A stretch of 64,000 nucleotides of DNA from Escherichia coli (lineage in GTDB: Bacteria; Pseudomonadota; Gammaproteobacteria; Enterobacterales; Enterobacteriaceae): the NCBI RefSeq assembly GCF_036507355.1, contig NZ_AP027877.1. One strand, 5' to 3'. The notes beneath the pieces are model-generated. The model had not been told where the DNA came from. It saw nothing but the letters and a program-made list of their open reading frames with translations, and searched no databases. Of the stretch, positions 723 through 11,222 are shown piece by piece; positions within the stretch are counted from its first letter, which is position 1, and every line of letters begins with the position of its first letter. The position numbers and the translations under genes are program-made.

Positions 723-2224
723 TGAAGACGTTGTTCTCCCGCTTAATTACCGTTATTGCCTGCTTTTTTATCTTCTCTGCCGCATGGTTTTGCCTGTGGA
801 GTATCAGCCTGCACCTGGTTGAGCGCCCTGATATGGCGGTGCTGTTATTTCCGTTTGGTCTGCGTCTGGGGCTAATGCTGCAATGCCCGCGCGGATACTG
901 GCCGGTGCTGCTGGGCGCGGAGTGGCTGCTGATTTACTGGCTAACGCAGGCGGTCGGTTTAACCCATTTTCCGTTATTGATGATCGGTAGTTTACTGACG
1001 TTACTGCCCGTAGCGCTGATCTCGCGCTATCGCCATCAGCGTGACTGGCGCACCTTGCTGCTACAAGGGGCGGCATTAACGGCGGCGGCGTTGTTGCAGT
1101 CGCTGCCCTGGCTTTGGCACGGCAAAGAGTCGTGGAATGCGCTGTTGCTGACTTTAACTGGCGGCCTGACGCTGGCCCCGATATGTCTGGTGTTCTGGCA
1201 CTATCTCGCCAATAACACCTGGCTGCCGCTCGGGCCGTCGTTAGTTTCTCAACCGATCAACTGGCGCGGGCGTCATCTGGTCTGGTACTTGCTGCTGTTT
1301 GTTATTAGTCTCTGGCTCCAGTTGGGATTGCCGGACGAACTGTCGCGCTTTACGCCATTCTGCCTGGCGCTGCCGATTATCGCGCTGGCCTGGCACTACG
1401 GCTGGCAAGGGGCGCTGATTGCGACGTTGATGAACGCCATCGCGCTGATCGCCAGTCAAACCTGGCGCGATCATCCGGTGGATTTATTGCTCTCGCTGCT
1501 GGTGCAAAGTCTGACAGGGTTGTTGCTTGGCGCTGGCATCCAGCGGTTGCGTGAACTTAACCAGTCGCTGCAAAAAGAACTGGCGCGCAATCAGCATCTG
1601 GCTGAACGTTTGTTAGAAACCGAAGAGAGCGTGCGCCGTGATGTGGCGCGTGAGCTGCACGACGATATCGGTCAGACCATCACTGCCATTCGTACTCAGG
1701 CGGGCATTGTCCAGCGACTGGCGGCAGATAACGCCAGCGTGAAGCAGAGCGGGCAGCTCATCGAACAACTGTCGCTGGGTGTTTACGATGCGGTGCGCCG
1801 TTTGTTAGGGCGGTTACGTCCGCGCCAGCTGGATGATCTCACCCTGGAGCAGGCCATCCGCTCACTGATGCGGGAAATGGAGCTGGAAGGGCGCGGCATT
1901 GTCAGCCATCTCGAATGGCGTATCGATGAGTCAGCGTTAAGTGAAAACCAGCGCGTGACGCTGTTTCGCGTCTGCCAGGAAGGGCTGAACAACATTGTGA
2001 AACATGCCGATGCCAGCGCGGTTACGCTGCAAGGCTGGCAGCAGGATGAACGGTTGATGCTGGTGATTGAAGACGATGGCAGCGGTTTGCCGCCGGGTTC
2101 CGGGCAACAAGGTTTTGGCCTCACCGGAATGCGCGAGCGCGTAACGGCGCTGGGCGGCACATTACACATTTCCTGTCTGCACGGCACGCGTGTCAGCGTT
2201 TCTCTACCTCAACGCTATGTCTAA
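722..2224 (+). CDS. uhpB: UhpB sensor histidine kinase
   Basis: 500-aa membrane protein with H-box (ELHDDIGQ) and ATPase motifs; start overlaps uhpA stop (GTGATGA). Confidence 0.9.
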
Positions 2225-2233
2225 GGTTCGATG

Positions 2234-3553
2234 ATGTTGCCGTTTCTGAAAGCGCCTGCCGATGCGCCATTAATGACTGACAAACATGAAATTGATGCAC
2301 GCTATCGCTACTGGCGTCGGCATATTCTGCTGACCATCTGGCTGGGTTACGCGCTGTTTTACTTCACGCGTAAAAGTTTTAACGCCGCGGTACCAGAAAT
2401 CCTTGCTAACGGCGTGCTCAGCCGTAGCGATATCGGCCTGTTAGCGACCCTGTTTTACATTACCTACGGCGTGTCGAAGTTTGTCTCCGGCATTGTCAGC
2501 GATCGCTCAAATGCCCGTTATTTTATGGGGATAGGGCTTATCGCCACGGGCATTATCAACATTCTGTTTGGCTTCTCGACGTCGCTATGGGCGTTTGCCG
2601 TACTCTGGGTGCTGAACGCCTTTTTCCAGGGCTGGGGTTCACCGGTGTGTGCGCGTCTGTTAACCGCCTGGTATTCTCGTACCGAGCGCGGCGGTTGGTG
2701 GGCATTATGGAACACGGCGCATAACGTCGGCGGCGCACTCATTCCCATTGTGATGGCAGCGGCTGCACTACATTACGGCTGGCGTGCCGGGATGATGATT
2801 GCTGGTTGTATGGCGATCGTCGTGGGGATTTTTCTCTGCTGGCGGCTGCGCGATCGCCCGCAGGCGTTAGGTTTACCGGCGGTCGGTGAATGGCGGCACG
2901 ACGCGCTGGAGATTGCTCAACAACAAGAAGGGGCAGGGCTGACGCGTAAAGAGATCCTCACCAAGTATGTGTTACTGAATCCGTATATCTGGCTGCTTTC
3001 GTTTTGCTATGTGCTGGTCTATGTGGTCCGGGCGGCAATCAACGACTGGGGCAATTTGTATATGTCCGAGACGCTGGGCGTCGATCTGGTCACGGCGAAT
3101 ACGGCAGTGACGATGTTTGAACTGGGCGGATTTATCGGTGCGCTGGTAGCCGGTTGGGGCTCGGACAAATTGTTTAACGGCAACCGTGGGCCGATGAATT
3201 TGATTTTCGCCGCCGGAATTTTGCTTTCAGTCGGCTCGCTGTGGCTGATGCCATTTGCCAGCTACGTGATGCAGGCAACCTGCTTCTTCACTATTGGTTT
3301 TTTTGTCTTTGGCCCGCAGATGTTAATCGGCATGGCGGCGGCAGAGTGTTCCCACAAAGAGGCGGCAGGGGCGGCGACGGGGTTTGTCGGCTTGTTTGCT
3401 TATCTGGGGGCGTCGCTTGCTGGTTGGCCACTGGCGAAAGTACTCGATACCTGGCACTGGAGCGGATTTTTTGTGGTTATCTCTATCGCCGCCGGGGTTT
3501 CCGCACTGCTGTTACTGCCCTTTTTGAACGCTCAGGCACCGCGCGAAGCGTGA
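2234..3553 (+). CDS. uhpC: UhpC membrane sensor of glucose-6-phosphate (MFS, UhpT-like)
   Basis: MLPFLKAPADAPLM N-terminus, MFS fold, position downstream of uhpB. Confidence 0.9.
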   Translation: MLPFLKAPADAPLMTDKHEIDARYRYWRRHILLTIWLGYALFYFTRKSFNAAVPEILANGVLSRSDIGLLATLFYITYGVSKFVSGIVSDRSNARYFMGIGLIATGIINILFGFSTSLWAFAVLWVLNAFFQGWGSPVCARLLTAWYSRTERGGWWALWNTAHNVGGALIPIVMAAAALHYGWRAGMMIAGCMAIVVGIFLCWRLRDRPQALGLPAVGEWRHDALEIAQQQEGAGLTRKEILTKYVLLNPYIWLLSFCYVLVYVVRAAINDWGNLYMSETLGVDLVTANTAVTMFELGGFIGALVAGWGSDKLFNGNRGPMNLIFAAGILLSVGSLWLMPFASYVMQATCFFTIGFFVFGPQMLIGMAAAECSHKEAAGAATGFVGLFAYLGASLAGWPLAKVLDTWHWSGFFVVISIAAGVSALLLLPFLNAQAPREA

Positions 3554-3589
3554 TGCATCTCACCTTTTCACTTCATATCCGGCAAAACT

Positions 3590-3700
3590 AAGAAATTTTC
3601 CAGGTTTTGCCTGGACGCTATCTCAGGCCTGATTTGCTGCTGATTTTTACAATGCCATCATTCATTAATTCTTTCCCAAAATAATTCAAGTTGCAGGAAC
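3590..3700 (+). promoter_or_regulatory. uhpT promoter region with candidate UhpA-binding repeats
   Basis: Intergenic region upstream of uhpT containing ccagg-ttttg-cctgg and caggcctga repeat motifs; assignment by position and recollection of uhpT regulation, exact sites not verified. Confidence 0.3.
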
Positions 3701-3808
3701 GCAGCAAACGCGTGAGTCCCGGGAGCATAGTGAACGATGTGACCGGGAGGAATGCGTGCAGCTAAGGCACCTGCGGCTTGAAGTATGAAGGGAAATCAGG
3801 AGTAACCC

Positions 3809-5200
3809 ATGCTGGCTTTCTTAAACCAGGTTCGCAAGCCGACCCTGGACCTTCCGCTCGAAGTGCGGCGCAAAATGTGGTTCAAACCGTTCATGCAATC
3901 CTACCTGGTGGTCTTTATCGGCTACCTGACGATGTACCTGATTCGCAAGAACTTTAACATCGCGCAGAACGATATGATTTCGACCTACGGGTTGAGCATG
4001 ACGCAGCTGGGGATGATCGGCCTGGGTTTCTCCATCACTTATGGCGTGGGTAAAACGCTGGTTTCCTACTACGCCGACGGCAAAAACACCAAACAATTCC
4101 TGCCGTTCATGCTTATCCTGTCTGCCATTTGTATGCTGGGCTTCAGTGCCAGTATGGGCAGCGGCTCGGTTAGCCTGTTCCTGATGATTGCCTTCTACGC
4201 CTTAAGCGGCTTTTTCCAGAGCACCGGCGGTTCGTGCAGTTACTCCACCATCACCAAATGGACGCCGCGTCGTAAACGTGGGACGTTCCTCGGTTTCTGG
4301 AACATTTCTCACAACCTTGGCGGTGCAGGCGCGGCAGGTGTGGCGCTGTTTGGGGCAAATTACCTGTTCGATGGTCATGTCATCGGCATGTTTATTTTCC
4401 CGTCGATTATCGCGCTGATTGTCGGTTTTATTGGCCTGCGTTACGGCAGCGACTCCCCGGAATCTTATGGCCTCGGCAAAGCTGAAGAACTGTTCGGCGA
4501 GGAGATCAGCGAAGAGGACAAAGAGACTGAATCTACCGATATGACCAAGTGGCAGATCTTTGTTGAGTATGTGCTGAAAAACAAAGTGATCTGGCTGCTG
4601 TGCTTCGCCAACATTTTCCTCTATGTGGTGCGTATTGGTATCGACCAGTGGTCAACCGTGTACGCGTTCCAGGAACTGAAACTCTCTAAAGCGGTGGCGA
4701 TTCAGGGCTTTACGCTGTTTGAAGCTGGTGCGCTGGTCGGTACGCTGCTGTGGGGCTGGCTCTCTGACCTGGCGAACGGTCGCCGTGGCCTGGTGGCCTG
4801 CATCGCGCTGGCGCTGATTATCGCCACGCTCGGTGTGTATCAACATGCCAGCAACGAATATATCTATCTGGCTTCTCTCTTTGCGTTGGGCTTCCTGGTC
4901 TTTGGCCCGCAATTGTTGATTGGTGTGGCTGCTGTTGGTTTTGTACCTAAAAAAGCGATTGGTGCTGCCGATGGTATTAAAGGCACCTTTGCTTACCTGA
5001 TTGGTGACAGCTTTGCCAAGTTAGGTCTGGGAATGATTGCCGATGGGACGCCGGTATTCGGCCTTACCGGCTGGGCAGGCACCTTCGCCGCGCTGGATAT
5101 CGCCGCGATTGGTTGTATCTGCCTGATGGCGATAGTGGCGGTGATGGAAGAACGCAAAATCCGCCGCGAGAAAAAAATTCAGCAGTTGACAGTGGCATAA
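3809..5200 (+). CDS. uhpT: Hexose-6-phosphate:phosphate antiporter UhpT (MFS)
   Basis: 463-aa [32 protein letters not shown]-terminus. Confidence 0.92.
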
Positions 5201-5218
5201 ACGTAACTGGTGACTTTT

Positions 5219-5246
5219 GCCCGGCATGACGCCGGGCTTTTTTTTT
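5219..5246. terminator. Bidirectional rho-independent terminator between uhpT and ade
   Basis: GC stem gcccggcatgacgccgggc followed by T9, between convergent genes. Confidence 0.7.
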
Positions 5247-5247
5247 A

Positions 5248-7014
5248 TTATTCCGTGACTTCCAGCGTGGTGAAGGCAAACTTCTCGCCATCAAATAGCC
5301 CCTGACTGGTTAGTTTTAGCGCGGGGATCACTGGCAGAGAAAGAAACGCCATCTGAATAAACGGCTCATCGGGTAACGGACCGCATTCACGGGCGGCGGC
5401 TTTCAAGGCGTCAATTTGTTCCGCCAGCGACTGCGCCGTGTCGGTGCTCATCAGCCCGGCAATGGGCAACGGTAGATGACTTTGTACCTGGCCGTCACGT
5501 ACCACGCACAACCCGCCGCCATCCTGAATCACCTGATTGACCGCCAGCGCCATCTCTTCGGCACTGCGACCGATCACCACAATATTATGGCTGTCATGGC
5601 TGACCGTCGCAGCCAGCGCACCTTCATTCAGGCCAAAGCCGCCGAGCAAACCACAGGCCGGAGCCAGCCGTTGCCCGTAACGCTCAAGTACGGCAATAAA
5701 GCACACATCATCGCGATCAAAACCATTTTCGCTATAGACGCTGGAGCGGGAGTGCGTAATCAATTCGTTATGGATGACGTCAATGACCCGATAGCGTTTT
5801 CCGGGCATGAATTGCAGGGCAAAGTCGCTGGCGGAAACTGGCTGGCGGGCAATGGTATTGCCAAATGGCGGGGCAGACTGCGCCAGTCTCGCCGACTCTT
5901 CCGCCTGTAAGGTTTGCGCGTCAATCGGTTCGCCTTTCACCAGTACCTGCTGCACCGTGACCTTACGCGCATCGCTCAACAGGACGATATCAGCCTGCTT
6001 TCCGGGTGCCAGTAAGCCGAGGTGATTCAGACCAAAGTGGCGCGCCGTCGACCAGCTGGCGACGCGATATGCCACATGCAGCGGCACATTGTGTTGTTCG
6101 ATCAGGCGGCGAATTAGGGCATCGATATGCCCTTCATGGGCGATCTCCCACGGGTTACGGTCATCAGTACAGAGCATGCATTGCGGGCTGTTAAATTCGT
6201 TGATCAACGGTGCCAGTGCGTTGAGATTGCGGGCAGCGGACCCCTCGCGGATCATCAACGACATGCCGAGTTGTAATTTCCGGCGTCCTTCTTCCAGCTG
6301 ATAACTTTCGTGGCAGTTTTCAATACCCGCGGCAATATAGGCGTTAAGTTCTTTACCACCCAAACCCGGGCAGTGACCGTCCAGCGTCAGGTGGCGAAAT
6401 GCATCCAGTTTATCGAGCAGCGCATTCTGCCCGCTAATTACGCCAGGGTAGTCCATCATTTCTGCAAGGCCGGTAACCTGCGGATGGTCCCGCCAGGCGA
6501 GCATCTGTTCAAGGGTAAAACTGGCACCGTTAACATCGCAGCCTTCCAGAGCGGGCACGCAAGAGCTGACCTGTAAGTACTGGTTTTGCCTTGCCTGTTT
6601 GGCACAGCGGGCAAACCAGGCGAATCCGGCTTCGCCCATCACGTTGACGATTTCATGAGGGTCGCAAATAACGGTCGTCAGGCCGCGCGGCAGGGTAGCG
6701 GTTTCAAAAGTGACCGGCGTCATCATGCTGGATTCAATATGCAGGTGAGCATCAATAAACCCTGGCACCGCCGTTGCGCCGCGGGCATCAATCCGCTGCA
6801 AAGCCGGAGCATCAGTGTATTCTGCGCCAACACCGGCAATGTAACGTCCTTTAATCACAATTGGGCCGGAAATTTCTCCGCCATTGATCAGGTCGAGAAT
6901 AGAGACATTATCAATAATATAATCGGCAACAGCGTCGCCACGGGAAACGGCTAACAATTCCTGGTATTCAGCCCGGCTAATGTGATGAAATTTATGGTTA
7001 ATAGAATTATTCAT
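5248..7014 (-). CDS. ade: Adenine deaminase
   Basis: 588-aa ORF with amidohydrolase metal-binding motifs ([12 protein letters not shown]), matches Ade/YicP. Confidence 0.9.
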
Positions 7015-7188
7015 ATTTTTCTCATTTTGATTTTATCAATTTGATTATTATTTATCATAAAGAAACGTCGCGAGATTATTAAAGAATATCCATTAATGTG
7101 CAATTGAAATGTGATAATTATCACTGAACCGTTGTTGTCATTTGTTTTACAAAAGCAAGGGATTAAATCTCCTCCAATGGACAACAAA

Positions 7189-8523
7189 ATGAATAATGAC
7201 AATACCGATTACGTGAGTAATGAATCAGGGACGCTTTCGCGATTATTTAAACTACCTCAGCATGGGACCACCGTCCGCACAGAATTGATTGCGGGGATGA
7301 CCACTTTTTTAACCATGGTGTACATCGTTTTTGTGAATCCACAAATTCTCGGCGCGGCACAAATGGACCCGAAAGTGGTGTTTGTTACCACCTGTTTGAT
7401 TGCCGGTATCGGCAGCATTGCGATGGGGATATTTGCTAACTTACCTGTGGCGCTGGCTCCGGCAATGGGGCTGAACGCCTTCTTTGCCTTCGTGGTCGTG
7501 GGGGCGATGGGTATCTCCTGGCAGACCGGGATGGGCGCGATATTCTGGGGCGCAATTGGGCTATTTTTGCTCACGCTGTTTCGTATCCGGTACTGGATGA
7601 TCTCCAACATTCCATTAAGTTTACGTATTGGTATCACCAGTGGAATCGGATTATTTATTGCCTTAATGGGATTAAAAAACACTGGCGTTATTGTCGCCAA
7701 TAAAGACACCCTGGTGATGATTGGCGATTTAAGCTCTCACGGCGTGTTGTTAGGTATATTAGGTTTTTTTATTATAACCGTATTGTCATCACGTCATTTT
7801 CATGCCGCGGTGCTGGTTTCCATCGTCGTCACTTCCTGCTGCGGATTATTTTTCGGTGATGTTCATTTTAGCGGCGTCTATTCCATTCCGCCTGATATTA
7901 GCGGCGTCATTGGTGAAGTAGATTTGAGCGGCGCGTTAACACTTGAACTCGCCGGTATCATTTTCTCCTTTATGCTGATCAACCTATTTGATTCATCAGG
8001 AACATTAATTGGTGTAACTGATAAAGCTGGCTTAATAGATAGTAACGGTAAATTCCCCAATATGAATAAGGCGCTGTATGTTGATAGCGTCAGTTCGGTG
8101 GCGGGTGCGTTTATCGGCACCTCGTCTGTTACTGCCTATATTGAAAGTACTTCTGGTGTGGCAGTCGGTGGCCGCACGGGGCTGACTGCGGTTGTGGTTG
8201 GCGTTATGTTCCTGTTGGTTATGTTCTTCTCACCGCTGGTGGCGATGGTTCCTCCTTACGCAACCGCTGGAGCGTTAATCTTTGTTGGCGTGCTGATGAC
8301 TTCGAGCCTGGCGCGCGTTAACTGGGATGATTTTACCGAATCGGTGCCTGCGTTTATTACCACGGTGATGATGCCCTTTACTTTCTCGATCACCGAAGGG
8401 ATTGCACTCGGCTTTATGTCGTACTGCATCATGAAAGTGTGCACCGGGCGCTGGCGCGATCTGAACCTGTGTGTGGTGATGGTCGCAGCTCTGTTTGCAC
8501 TCAAGATTATTCTGGTGGATTAG
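7189..8523 (+). CDS. adeQ: Adenine permease AdeQ (NCS2 family)
   Basis: ORF 7111..8523; internal start MNNDNTDYVSNESG gives 444 aa; polytopic NCS2 transporter; divergent from ade. Confidence 0.85.
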   Translation: MNNDNTDYVSNESGTLSRLFKLPQHGTTVRTELIAGMTTFLTMVYIVFVNPQILGAAQMDPKVVFVTTCLIAGIGSIAMGIFANLPVALAPAMGLNAFFAFVVVGAMGISWQTGMGAIFWGAIGLFLLTLFRIRYWMISNIPLSLRIGITSGIGLFIALMGLKNTGVIVANKDTLVMIGDLSSHGVLLGILGFFIITVLSSRHFHAAVLVSIVVTSCCGLFFGDVHFSGVYSIPPDISGVIGEVDLSGALTLELAGIIFSFMLINLFDSSGTLIGVTDKAGLIDSNGKFPNMNKALYVDSVSSVAGAFIGTSSVTAYIESTSGVAVGGRTGLTAVVVGVMFLLVMFFSPLVAMVPPYATAGALIFVGVLMTSSLARVNWDDFTESVPAFITTVMMPFTFSITEGIALGFMSYCIMKVCTGRWRDLNLCVVMVAALFALKIILVD

Positions 8524-8575
8524 TAACTGGCGAGGGTTTCCAGATATCATGAGTTCTGATTACGCAGGAGAACTC

Positions 8576-9028
8576 ATGATCTGGATAATGCTCGCCACGC
8601 TGGCGGTAGTGTTTGTGGTTGGTTTTCGGGTGCTGACATCCGGGGCCAGAAAAGCGATTCGCCGTCTCAGCGATCGGCTGAATATCGATGTTGTACCCGT
8701 GGAGTCGATGGTCGATCAAATGGGAAAGTCAGCTGGTGACGAATTTTTACGTTATTTGCATCGTCCGGATGAGTCGCACCTGCAAAACGCCGCGCAGGTG
8801 TTGCTCATCTGGCAAATTGTCATTGTCGATGGTAGCGAACAGAACCTGCTGCAATGGCATCGGATTTTACAAAAAGCCCGCCTTGCCGCGCCGATTACCG
8901 ATGCTCAGGTCAGGCTGGCGCTGGGTTTTCTGCGCGAAACTGAACCTGAAATGCAGGATATTAATGCTTTTCAGATGCGCTATAACGCATTCTTTCAGCC
9001 TGCCGAGGGCGTTCACTGGCTGCATTAA
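8576..9028 (+). CDS. yicN: YicN, DUF1198 small membrane-anchored protein
   Basis: ORF 8495..9028; start at MIWIMLATLAVVFVVGF gives 150 aa; conserved position after adeQ. Confidence 0.7.
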   Translation: MIWIMLATLAVVFVVGFRVLTSGARKAIRRLSDRLNIDVVPVESMVDQMGKSAGDEFLRYLHRPDESHLQNAAQVLLIWQIVIVDGSEQNLLQWHRILQKARLAAPITDAQVRLALGFLRETEPEMQDINAFQMRYNAFFQPAEGVHWLH

Positions 9029-9039
9029 AACCGCTTCGT

Positions 9040-9110
9040 CTTATCAGCCTACAGACCGTGCCTGACCTGTCGGGTGGATAAGGCGTTCACGCCGCATCCG
9101 GCATCGGAAC
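9040..9110. repeat. REP-like extragenic palindromic element
   Basis: Imperfect palindromes (cttatcagcctacag ... ggataaggcgttcacgccgcatccggca) typical of enterobacterial REP units, downstream of yicN. Confidence 0.5.
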
Positions 9111-9143
9111 TGACAGTAGGTGAACGCATTATCTACGTTCTAT

Positions 9144-9467
9144 TTACAGCAGCACCTCCAGCCCGTGTTTTTGCACAATGCTGAGCAGTTTTAATGAAAT
9201 GCCATTGGGGCGTTTAGCGCCACTTTCCCATTTTTGTACAGTTGAAACGCTGGTATTGAGATAGTGAGCGAAGACGGGCTGACTCACTTTTAATTTTTCC
9301 CGCAGTGCTTTTATCTCAACAGGTTGTAAGTCTTGCACGCTGGTCAGGCAGGCTTTGTCAAAAGTACGCATTGTTTCGGCAGAAATAGCATCGACGCTGG
9401 ACAATCCAGCCGCTGCGCTGTGAATAGCCTCAAATGCAGGACTTTTAAATTTAGTTTTTGCAGTCAT
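9144..9467 (-). CDS. HTH XRE-family antitoxin (HigA-like)
   Basis: 107-aa ORF with C-terminal HTH (SQPVFAHYLNTSVSTVQKWESGAKRP), overlaps the upstream toxin ORF by 17 bp. Confidence 0.65.
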   Translation of the reverse strand: MTAKTKFKSPAFEAIHSAAAGLSSVDAISAETMRTFDKACLTSVQDLQPVEIKALREKLKVSQPVFAHYLNTSVSTVQKWESGAKRPNGISLKLLSIVQKHGLEVLL

Positions 9468-9810
9468 AGCAGATCTCTGTCAGTTCTTTAGTGTTAATCA
9501 TTGCTGTTAGTTGGGCTTTCGTCAGGAAGGCATAATGCTTTGCAAGTTCACGAAACCCAGCCAGTTCCTGACTATTGATGTTCGACATATCCTGTTTTGC
9601 ATATAAAAACGTGTAAAACCAATTGCTTCCCCCTTTTGCCAGAATAATTGCACGCTCACGATTTTGGTGAAGGCGCTTTTTAAAAACGCCACCACCAAGT
9701 GCATCAGCTTTACCTTGCTCCGTTTCTAAAATGGCCCGGCACAACTCTTCATCTGTTATTGCATGAGACCTGGCTTCCCTTGCAAACCATTTGGTTTTAA
9801 ACACGCGCAT
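9451..9810 (-). CDS. RelE/ParE-superfamily toxin (HigB-like)
   Basis: 119-aa basic protein MRVFKTKWFAREA..., encoded immediately upstream of and overlapping an HTH antitoxin; toxin-first order typical of HigBA modules. Confidence 0.6.
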   Translation of the reverse strand: MRVFKTKWFAREARSHAITDEELCRAILETEQGKADALGGGVFKKRLHQNRERAIILAKGGSNWFYTFLYAKQDMSNINSQELAGFRELAKHYAFLTKAQLTAMINTKELTEICYDCKN

Positions 9811-10037
9811 ATCGTTGAGGTCCTGTTATTAAAGTATATCACCAAGTGCAATACTTTATCCCTTATTCCCAACCCAATCGCGAAAATGCATATCAGCTTG
9901 CCCTATGATTTTTGTTTCTTCGAGCAGCCTCGAACTTTTCCCACAACACCGTAAAAGTTGCAAAAACGTTAAATGCGTCACACATTTCAATGTTAAAGTG
10001 GTCGGCTTTTCCCCTGAAACATGCCACGGGTAACACC

Positions 10038-11222
10038 ATGAGTGAATTTATTGCCGAAAACCGCGGCGCGGATGCCATCACCCGACCGAACTGGTCAGCC
10101 GTTTTCTCGGTGGCGTTTTGTGTCGCCTGTCTGATTATCGTTGAGTTTTTGCCCGTCAGTTTGTTGACGCCAATGGCCCAGGATTTAGGCATTTCGGAAG
10201 GGGTTGCTGGGCAATCGGTGACCGTGACCGCCTTTGTGGCAATGTTTGCCAGTTTGTTTATTACCCAGACAATTCAGGCCACTGACCGCCGCTACGTTGT
10301 TATTTTATTTGCCGTTTTGCTGACGCTCTCCTGTTTGCTGGTTTCCTTTGCTAACTCATTCAGTTTGCTTTTAATCGGTCGTGCCTGTCTGGGGCTGGCG
10401 CTGGGCGGGTTCTGGGCGATGTCGGCGTCGCTGACCATGCGTCTGGTACCGCCGCGTACGGTGCCGAAGGCGCTGTCGGTGATCTTCGGCGCGGTTTCTA
10501 TTGCGCTGGTGATTGCCGCGCCGTTGGGCAGTTTTTTAGGCGAGCTTATCGGTTGGCGCAATGTCTTTAATGCGGCGGCGGTGATGGGCGTGCTGTGTAT
10601 TTTCTGGATTATCAAATCATTGCCTTCACTGCCAGGCGAACCCTCGCATCAGAAACAAAATACTTTCCGCTTATTACAACGTCCGGGTGTGATGGCAGGG
10701 ATGATCGCCATCTTCATGTCTTTCGCCGGGCAGTTTGCTTTCTTCACGTATATTCGCCCGGTGTATATGAACCTGGCGGGATTCAGCGTGGATGGCTTAA
10801 CGCTGGTGCTGTTGAGTTTTGGTATCGCCAGCTTTATCGGTACGTCGCTTTCGTCGTTCATTCTTAAACGTTCGGTAAAACTGGCCTTAGCAGGCGCGCC
10901 GTTAATACTGGCTGTGAGTGCGTTGGTGCTGACGTTGTGGGGAAGCGATAAAATCGTTGCTACCGGCGTGGCGATTATCTGGGGGCTAACTTTTGCATTG
11001 GTTCCCGTCGGCTGGTCAACGTGGATCACCCGCTCACTGGCCGATCAGGCAGAAAAAGCCGGGTCTATTCAGGTGGCGGTTATTCAGCTTGCTAATACCT
11101 GTGGCGCGGCAATCGGCGGTTATGCGCTGGATAATATTGGTCTGACTTCGCCGTTGATGTTGTCCGGCACATTGATGTTGCTGACGGCGTTATTGGTCAC
11201 CGCAAAGGTGAAAATGAAGTAA
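10038..11222 (+). CDS. nepI: Purine ribonucleoside efflux pump NepI (MFS)
   Basis: ORF 9912..11222; start at [23 protein letters not shown]; 12-TM MFS. Confidence 0.88.

Follow-up and report, generated by a model that had tools for sequence, protein, structure and literature searches.

A HigBA-2-type toxin-antitoxin operon beside nepI in Escherichia coli, most likely an ancestral locus deleted from the lineage that includes K-12

The 64,000-nucleotide stretch of Escherichia coli DNA analysed here (contig NZ_AP027877.1 of assembly GCF_036507355.1), referred to below as the window, carries two small overlapping genes between yicN and nepI (positions 9144-9810, minus strand). We hold it about 75% probable that this pair is a chromosomal toxin-antitoxin (TA) operon of the HigBA-2 type, that it works by the five-step mechanism set out below and that it represents an ancestral locus which was lost once in the K-12 lineage. 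This reading is built on direct observations of the open reading frames (ORFs), of family membership and fold, of the conservation of the active site and of a palindrome in front of the toxin gene, and of synteny and selection. The pair is an already known and annotated module of a characterised family. Exactly the same toxin and antitoxin sequences are annotated on at least 1000 public contigs each, under the names 'type II toxin-antitoxin system RelE/ParE family toxin' and 'helix-turn-helix domain-containing protein'.

Both ORFs are real genes and not chance ORFs, because the same ORF lengths and the same overlap are found across genera and because the ratio of nonsynonymous to synonymous substitution rates (dN/dS) is low where it can be estimated. 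ORFs of 360 and 324 nt with a 17-bp overlap recur in Escherichia ruysiae and in at least seven other genera, with lengths that are unchanged across genera; the overlap (4344-4360 in locus coordinates) is kept in Citrobacter, Salmonella, Klebsiella, Dickeya, Yersinia and Morganella, and only the Pantoea copy is slightly longer as called (378 nt, 23-bp overlap). Values of dN/dS amount to 0.1-0.2 within Escherichia and to 0.03-0.1 between genera where estimable; dS is saturated between genera, and there is no antitoxin value against Salmonella or Klebsiella. Two small, adjacent, co-oriented and overlapping genes with the toxin in first position correspond to the gene order of HigBA modules, and the overlap suggests that translation of the two genes may be coupled. 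The RefSeq annotation pipeline (PGAP) places the toxin start at a GTG two codons downstream of the ATG, which yields a protein of 117 amino acids (9804-9810 being the positions concerned), and lengths of 117 and 119 amino acids are both found in databases. The ATG is the better call, because it is conserved across genera, because an AGGA motif 10 nt upstream of it is conserved as well and because the Pfam alignment begins with residue 1.

The toxin is a member of the HigB-2/PF06296 'RelE' family and not of the Rts1 HigB family. PF06296 is its only Pfam match (E 9.8e-42, score 142) and residues 1-113 span model positions 1-120 of 120. The toxin family comprises 2003 representatives at the 50% identity level. 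Vibrio cholerae HigB-2 matches the same model with an E-value of 3e-8 and was assigned to PF06296 also in the survey by Gerdes in 2025 (PMC11980606); the Coxiella toxin ToxP belongs to the family, too. NCBIfam and PADLOC models gave no match to the toxin. An AlphaFold2 model built from 31 homologues (predicted local distance difference test score, pLDDT, 87.5; predicted template modelling score 0.81) exhibits the RelE/BECR fold. When it was compared with the PDB by Foldseek, the top five hits were all HigB2 chains (5ja9, 8a0x, 5mje) with a probability of 1.0, followed by other toxins of the RelE superfamily, namely M. tuberculosis HigB1, YoeB, YafQ and RelE. In a bridging alignment of 29 sequences that consisted of the toxin, diverse family representatives, Coxiella ToxP and V. 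cholerae HigB2, the only invariant columns are L23, K44, R46, R53 and K72. The active-site residues of HigB2, K49, R51, R64, Y82 and K84, have been established by mutagenesis (PMC5416850; PMC10098735) and correspond to K44, R46, R53, Y70 and K72 of the toxin, such that all five positions of the putative active site are kept. The connection to HigB2 thus rests on Pfam, on the predicted fold and on the bridging alignment via ToxP. By analogy, the toxin would be a ribosome-dependent mRNA endonuclease that inhibits growth.

The antitoxin carries a C-terminal XRE-type helix-turn-helix (HTH) domain homologous to V. cholerae HigA2. Residues 46-102 match HigA-2 (PDB 5jaa) in a phmmer search with an E-value of 8e-10, and Pfam recognises HTH_3 at residues 52-96 plus the C-terminal part of MqsA_antitoxin. 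The MqsA-family, NadS and YiaG (PRK10072) models of NCBIfam are all matched below cut-off, and PADLOC returned generic HTH matches only. HigA2 entries (5jaa, 5j9i and 8a0x) are likewise the best Foldseek hits for the AlphaFold2 model of the antitoxin, with 39-44% identity and root mean square deviations of 1.5-2.8 Å. The N-terminal 45 or so residues are conserved as well as the HTH domain, as expected if the N-terminus of the antitoxin binds the toxin. In the monomer model this part forms a strand (residues 4-7), two helices (10-24 and 30-40) and a second strand (41-44), with mean pLDDT values per 10-residue block between 56 and 86 for residues 1-50. The model is compatible with folding upon toxin binding, bearing in mind that it is no guide to disorder.

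The preliminary description of this locus, made from the letters alone, had recognised a basic 119-amino acid ORF overlapping by 17 bp a 107-amino acid protein with an HTH in its C-terminal part, and a shared upstream region from which nepI diverges. All of this was recovered, with 227 bp separating the start codons of toxin (9810) and nepI (10038); the strand, which the description had left unnamed, is the minus strand. The profile searches that it had proposed as a check lead to PF06296 for the toxin and to HTH_3 and HigA-2 for the antitoxin. Its designation as a HigB/HigA-like, toxin-first pair is sound as far as the HigBA type is concerned and can now be refined to HigBA-2 (PF06296) with a HigA2/YiaG-like antitoxin; an affiliation with Rts1 HigB does not apply.

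The HigBA modules of Rts1/Proteus vulgaris and of K-12 (YgjN/YgjM) and the SehAB system share the toxin-first arrangement, a toxin of the RelE superfamily and an HTH antitoxin with the pair described here. However, the Rts1 HigB and K-12 HigB families correspond to PF05015 and PF09907, respectively, and have larger antitoxins, which bind the toxin differently. The toxin belongs to neither of these Pfam families (SehA included), and with regard to Rts1 HigB, K-12 HigB and SehA the name 'HigB' therefore fits in wording and gene order only. Salmonella SehAB, initially considered as the possible identity of the pair, was rejected: SehB has 142 amino acids and resembles K-12 HigA, and SehA is YgjN-like.

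The nearest solved structures for both proteins are those of V. cholerae HigB-2/HigA-2 (VCA0468/0469; PDB 5JA8, 5JAA, 8A0X), a system with the same PF06296 toxin family, the same toxin-first order and counterparts of the five active-site residues. HigBA-2 of V. cholerae is a superintegron cassette, whereas the pair studied here occupies a fixed chromosomal locus. The closest experimentally characterised pair that was found is ToxP/AntitoxP of Coxiella burnetii (CBUA0028/CBUA0027, plasmid QpH1). Over their full lengths, the toxins are 31% identical (E 1e-18) and the antitoxins 55% (E 7e-37). ToxP is toxic and blocks translation in a cell-free system, its toxicity is abolished by the exchange K79E, AntitoxP binds ToxP, and promoter binding was shown as well (PMC10098735). 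K79 aligns with K72 of the toxin. ToxP shares the C-terminal extension of the toxin, but keeps a long basic loop absent from the Enterobacteriaceae subfamily, and the Coxiella pair is plasmid-borne and serves plasmid maintenance. The 'relE-yiaG' modules of Gerdes (PMC11980606) combine the same toxin family with a downstream YiaG/HigA2-like HTH antitoxin; the toxins of that subfamily have extended disordered N-termini, whereas the toxin described here opens with a conserved MRVFKT strand.

In Salmonella Typhimurium, relBE3ST (SL3743/SL3744 = STM3777/STM3778) has the same 667-bp span, encodes a pair with RelE-like and Xre-like domains and has a phosphotransferase system (PTS) island among its neighbours, as does the nepI-adjacent locus that we retrieved from Salmonella enterica. 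At the latter locus, toxin and antitoxin are 70% and 80% identical to the pair in E. coli, and the antitoxin has a computed mass of 11,766 Da as compared to 11,754 Da reported for relBE3ST. Size, domains, antitoxin mass and neighbours suggest that relBE3ST is the Salmonella orthologue. Overexpression of RelE3ST lowered cultivability (Lobato-Marquez et al., PMC4366850).

Upstream of the toxin gene lies a 19-bp palindrome, which is probably the operator of an antitoxin dimer. Nine loci of nine genera have its CAC-N3-GTG core with flanking TA(G)/(C)TA, always equally far from the toxin ATG and regardless of the flanking genes, and the window contains no second full site. The operator of V. cholerae HigA2, TGTACGC-N5-GCGTACA, has been characterised by footprinting and crystallography as a single 19-bp inverted repeat across the -10 element (PMC11006873). 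The palindrome in E. coli (TAGCAC-N3-GTGCTA) has the same span and the same position overlapping a candidate -10 element, but is unrelated in sequence. The candidate extended -10 motif, TGnTATAnT, is kept in other genera. An exact 11-nt copy of the operator core (positions 9840-9850), CACCAAGTGCA, within the A-L-G-G codons of the toxin gene (9693-9703) was considered as a further site and dismissed; it is probably a chance repeat, because neither E. ruysiae nor other genera have kept it.

Taken together, these features would be accommodated by the following mechanism. First, the operon would be transcribed leftward from a promoter whose -10 element lies inside the palindrome. Second, the RelE-fold toxin would cut A-site codons on the ribosome by means of K44, R46, R53, Y70 and K72, leading to arrest of translation and growth. 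Third, the antitoxin would be translated by coupling through the 17-bp overlap. Fourth, its N-terminal region would fold onto the toxin and thereby neutralise it. Fifth, its C-terminal HTH domain would dimerise, bind the palindrome and repress the operon. Toxicity, RNA cleavage, neutralisation and operator binding are all expected in this strain by analogy with the characterised relatives.

A number of observations speak against this interpretation. The structural likeness of the toxin to HigB2 is moderate and not close (template modelling score 0.5-0.59, 20% identity, Foldseek E ~2e-3), the PDB yielded no match either with the toxin sequence or with a profile of 31 sequences, and hhalign connects toxin and HigB-2 only weakly. 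In sequence, HigB-2 and the toxin share only about 20-24% identity; relative to the V. cholerae protein, the long basic beta2-beta3 loop is missing from the subfamily and the C-terminus is longer by about 25 residues, which in the model of the toxin belong to an extension of two helices and a strand (residues ~80-115). The active-site tyrosine is replaced by phenylalanine in many members of the family. Each half-site of the E. coli palindrome differs by one base from the cross-genus consensus, and a consensus promoter scan of positions 8950-10100 did not call any canonical sigma-70 -35/-10 pair, for which reason the -10 element can only be proposed. The assay used for the Salmonella pair showed no neutralisation of RelE3ST by its cognate antitoxin RelB3ST (PMC4366850), a result that fits poorly with a simple TA pair. 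In addition, SehA has a HigB-like fold without RNase activity (PMC12817084), and no publication on the E. coli locus itself was found in the literature.

The pair looks like an old, vertically inherited resident of the nepI site in Escherichia, Salmonella, Citrobacter and Klebsiella. E. ruysiae, Citrobacter koseri and Klebsiella oxytoca share the arrangement in which nepI is divergent from and yicN convergent with the pair; Salmonella enterica retains the nepI side and has a PTS island in place of the yicN side. The intergenic region can be aligned among all taxa with the pair at nepI. Nucleotide identity of the pair follows that of the flanking genes nepI and yicN, with 93-94% versus 90-94% for E. 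ruysiae, 74-77% versus 76-79% for C. koseri and 71-73% versus 71-76% for K. oxytoca. A search for flanking direct repeats, an integrase or a tRNA gene at the locus was negative. In more distant genera the module resides elsewhere, namely beside pabA-argD in Dickeya and Pantoea, at a different site in Yersinia and adjoining an integrase gene in Morganella, and relatives occur on plasmids of Coxiella, rhizobia, Pseudomonas and Legionella. From these differing sites and the plasmid-borne relatives it follows that the module moves over long periods.

A second line of evidence comes from the distribution within E. coli. The K-12 derivative TG1 does not contain any gene between yicN and nepI, just as the preliminary description had stated for K-12. 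In the alignment an 844-bp segment (9100-9943, or 9102-9943 when delimited as the polymorphic part) is replaced by about 43 unrelated nucleotides in TG1, and the alignment breaks after GCCGCATCCGG, at the end of a repetitive extragenic palindromic (REP) element. The segment is carried by 1716 of 5426 complete E. coli genomes, always in single copy and always on the chromosome, at 95-99.9% identity apart from one artefactual assembly. A uniform K-12-type empty junction is present in 3667 genomes, and in 3370 of them it is at least 99% identical. There are, therefore, essentially two alleles at the yicN-nepI site in E. coli. Synteny in four taxa, divergence that tracks the flanks, the single chromosomal copy and one uniform empty allele argue for vertical inheritance, and the K-12 state most likely reflects a single deletion of the ancestral locus in the lineage that includes K-12. 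The module would then be an old resident of the nepI-yicN interval, held by purifying selection in about one third of E. coli and removed by one deletion. On these grounds the earlier view of the pair as an accessory insertion is not supported. What stands is that the pair is accessory in the sense of being variable in E. coli (1716/5426); that it was inserted here is improbable.

The short filler at the K-12 junction contains a stretch that matches codons ~29-35 of the toxin gene in 16 of 19 positions (shuffle p ~0.015). When the filler is instead aligned globally to positions 9894-9943, the result does not exceed that for shuffled sequence (p 0.33). The evidence that the filler holds a relic of the toxin gene is suggestive only, because positions 9892-9904 contain a similar 13-mer and make the assignment ambiguous. 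An allele of E. coli HS-02 (NZ_CP172818.1; 2371-3349 in locus coordinates), in which the pair region is only 80% identical and the toxin appears 'frameshifted', was considered as a decaying intermediate. It was rejected as an assembly or polishing artefact because it is full of homopolymer runs.

The REP element at the left junction is situated between yicN and the antitoxin stop codon and probably serves as a shared terminator or stabiliser of the convergent transcripts. Rfam reports a sub-threshold match to naRNA4, which is REP-derived, at 9072-9137, and apart from this REP-like match the Rfam scan returned only a spurious microRNA match; a terminator consensus scan of 8950-10100 did not find anything.

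Among the alternatives, a domesticated or attenuated module is one that we consider improbable. In such a case the pair would be kept because it serves the host, for instance if one protein acted as a transcription factor and its partner were weak or only conditionally active, and the 107-amino acid protein would not be a classical antitoxin. A selfish addiction module does not usually persist for so long by vertical descent at a single locus with dN/dS of 0.03-0.2, and this persistence would be explained, as would the inability of RelB3ST to neutralise RelE3ST (PMC4366850), the basic nature of the antitoxin (pI 9.6) and the existence of YiaG, a solitary paralogue-like regulator in K-12 (matched through NCBIfam PRK10072; PMC11980606). 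Strict conservation of the active site is, however, unexpected if catalysis is dispensable, the N-terminus of the antitoxin is conserved equally to the HTH domain, the homologous pair from Coxiella shows classical TA behaviour (PMC10098735), and the sole operator-like site in the window is located at the module's own promoter. We assign a similarly low likelihood to the broader proposition of a host-beneficial, 'domesticated' TA system that has been kept at nepI, with two intact reading frames under purifying selection, from before the divergence of Escherichia, Salmonella, Citrobacter and Klebsiella and is neither selfish nor mobile. If it were true, selection might have favoured a stress or defence switch or a link with the divergently transcribed purine-nucleoside exporter gene nepI, and the K-12-type lineage, which makes up about two thirds of the complete E. 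coli genomes, would have lost this function in a single step.

There is just as little reason to favour phage defence by abortive infection as the selected role, in which case the molecular mechanism would be the same and translation would be shut down upon infection. A defence role has been discussed for TA modules of the RelE/ParE superfamily (PMC11980606), the antitoxin strongly matches the phage protein family phrog_2104 (E 1e-26) and the strain-variable distribution would fit. On the other hand, the toxin has no PADLOC match, the neighbouring genes encode housekeeping transporters and do not form a defence island, and the locus is stable and syntenic and not a hot spot. In a phage collection the sole match is a Salmonella Infantis record whose size of 515 kb marks it as a bacterial contig, and therefore no true phage in the collection carries the toxin. 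Direct support for a defence role was not found.

Somewhat less probable still is a recent horizontal insertion of the 844-bp cassette into the yicN-nepI spacer, with the arrangement of K-12 as the ancestral one. It would account for the lack of the module in K-12 and in two thirds of the complete E. coli genomes, it would be in line with the movement of the family over long time scales (Dickeya, Pantoea, Yersinia, Morganella with its integrase, and plasmids), and the left junction coincides with a REP element, a known hot spot of rearrangement. It is contradicted by the gene order from nepI to the pair (and on to yicN) together with the alignable intergenic region in E. ruysiae, C. koseri, K. 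oxytoca and Salmonella, by the agreement of pair and flank identities in the first three of these, by the failure to find target-site duplications, an integrase or a tRNA gene, by the fact that the segment was never plasmid-borne or present in two copies among the 5426 genomes and by the single empty-site allele, which may contain a toxin relic. Neither the mobility signs nor the absence from outgroups that characterise a horizontally inserted islet were encountered. Least probable of all is a non-canonical target of the toxin, i.e. growth inhibition via another factor in the way SehA inhibits RNase III instead of mRNA cleavage, for although SehA is a known case of a HigB-like fold that has no RNase activity (PMC12817084) and the toxin differs from V. 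cholerae HigB2 by its C-terminal extension and shortened basic loop, SehA lacks the canonical active-site residues while the toxin keeps all five HigB2 positions, SehAB represents a different family (SehB with 142 amino acids being K-12 HigA-like), and ToxP with the same C-terminal extension inhibits cell-free translation (PMC10098735).

Table 1. Coordinates of the operon, its presumed signals and its flanks in the window
Feature	Positions	Strand	Remarks
Toxin gene	9451..9810	minus	ATG start, 119 amino acids, isoelectric point (pI) 9.2, 360 nt
Antitoxin gene	9144..9467	minus	107 amino acids, pI 9.6, 324 nt
Overlap of toxin 3' end and antitoxin start	9451..9467	minus	17 bp
Palindrome, probable operator	9835..9853		19 bp; minus-strand reading TATTGCAC-TTG-GTGATATA; from an inverted-repeat search; 25-43 nt upstream of the toxin ATG
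Candidate extended -10 element TGATATACT	9833..9841	minus	read from the sequence; within the right arm of the palindrome
Shine-Dalgarno motif AGGA of the toxin gene	9821..9824	minus	10 nt upstream of the ATG; ACAGGA in most aligned genera
Possible counterpart of a toxin relic in the K-12 filler	9708..9726	minus	codons ~29-35 'ETEQGK'; 16/19 match in a local alignment
REP element after yicN	9037..9103		left junction of the polymorphism at its end; many copies per genome, median 7 places
yicN (DUF1198), flank	8576..9028	plus	convergent neighbour
nepI, flank outside the module	10038..11222	plus	divergent neighbour; purine ribonucleoside efflux pump according to the RefSeq annotation of near-identical genomes

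On the nepI side, the encoded protein is 100% identical to K-12 NepI at the amino acid level. The nepI gene itself is 99% identical in nucleotide sequence to that of K-12 and only 94% to that of O157:H7, and the pair is 98-99% identical to the O157:H7 copies. Recombination with a breakpoint between the pair and nepI may account for this difference. A conserved block upstream of nepI (9955-10000) contains an imperfect palindrome, GCAAAAACGTTAAATGC, and a repeated AA(C/T)GTTAAA motif; it is kept in K-12, can be aligned in Citrobacter, Salmonella and Klebsiella, and may be a regulator site for nepI.

Beyond nepI, a large accessory island (11424-27000) extends to yicS/nlpA, at a position where K-12 and O157:H7 have yicS only. 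The island begins with iatC (11424-20213) for an inverse-autotransporter adhesin of 2929 amino acids with many Ig-like repeats (IatC in the annotation of the nearest genome), followed up to ~26474 by minus-strand ORFs for the HilA-family regulator EilA and for type III secretion translocon, tip and chaperone proteins of the IpaD/SipD, YopB/SseC and SycD type. It looks like the known eip/eilA/air (ETT2-related) locus. On the other side, adeQ for an adenine permease lies just upstream of yicN; it is intact here and annotated as frameshifted in O157:H7 ATCC 43888 (1661-2994 of its locus). Combat11I9, the closest complete genome, shares 99.7% identity over 8530-10100 and harbours an extra island of about 7 kb (1700-8720 of its locus) between uhpT and the adenine deaminase gene, with a DUF1198 paralogue, a porin, a cellobiose-type PTS, a glycoside hydrolase of family 1, a LacI-type regulator and a yicS fragment. 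In the window, uhpT is directly followed by the deaminase gene (5200-5248) and the Combat11I9 island is absent.

The value of the locus as a discovery is small, given that the proteins are annotated, that the family has been characterised in Vibrio and Coxiella and that what appears to be the Salmonella orthologue already has a name and has been assayed. The proper label for the pair is HigBA-2/PF06296 and neither Rts1-type HigBA nor SehAB. Its absence from K-12, if due to a single deletion, is of relevance wherever K-12 serves as the 'complete' reference for chromosomal TA systems. Moreover, TA modules with synteny across genera are rare, and the pair, as one of them, could help to ask what holds chromosomal TA systems in place.

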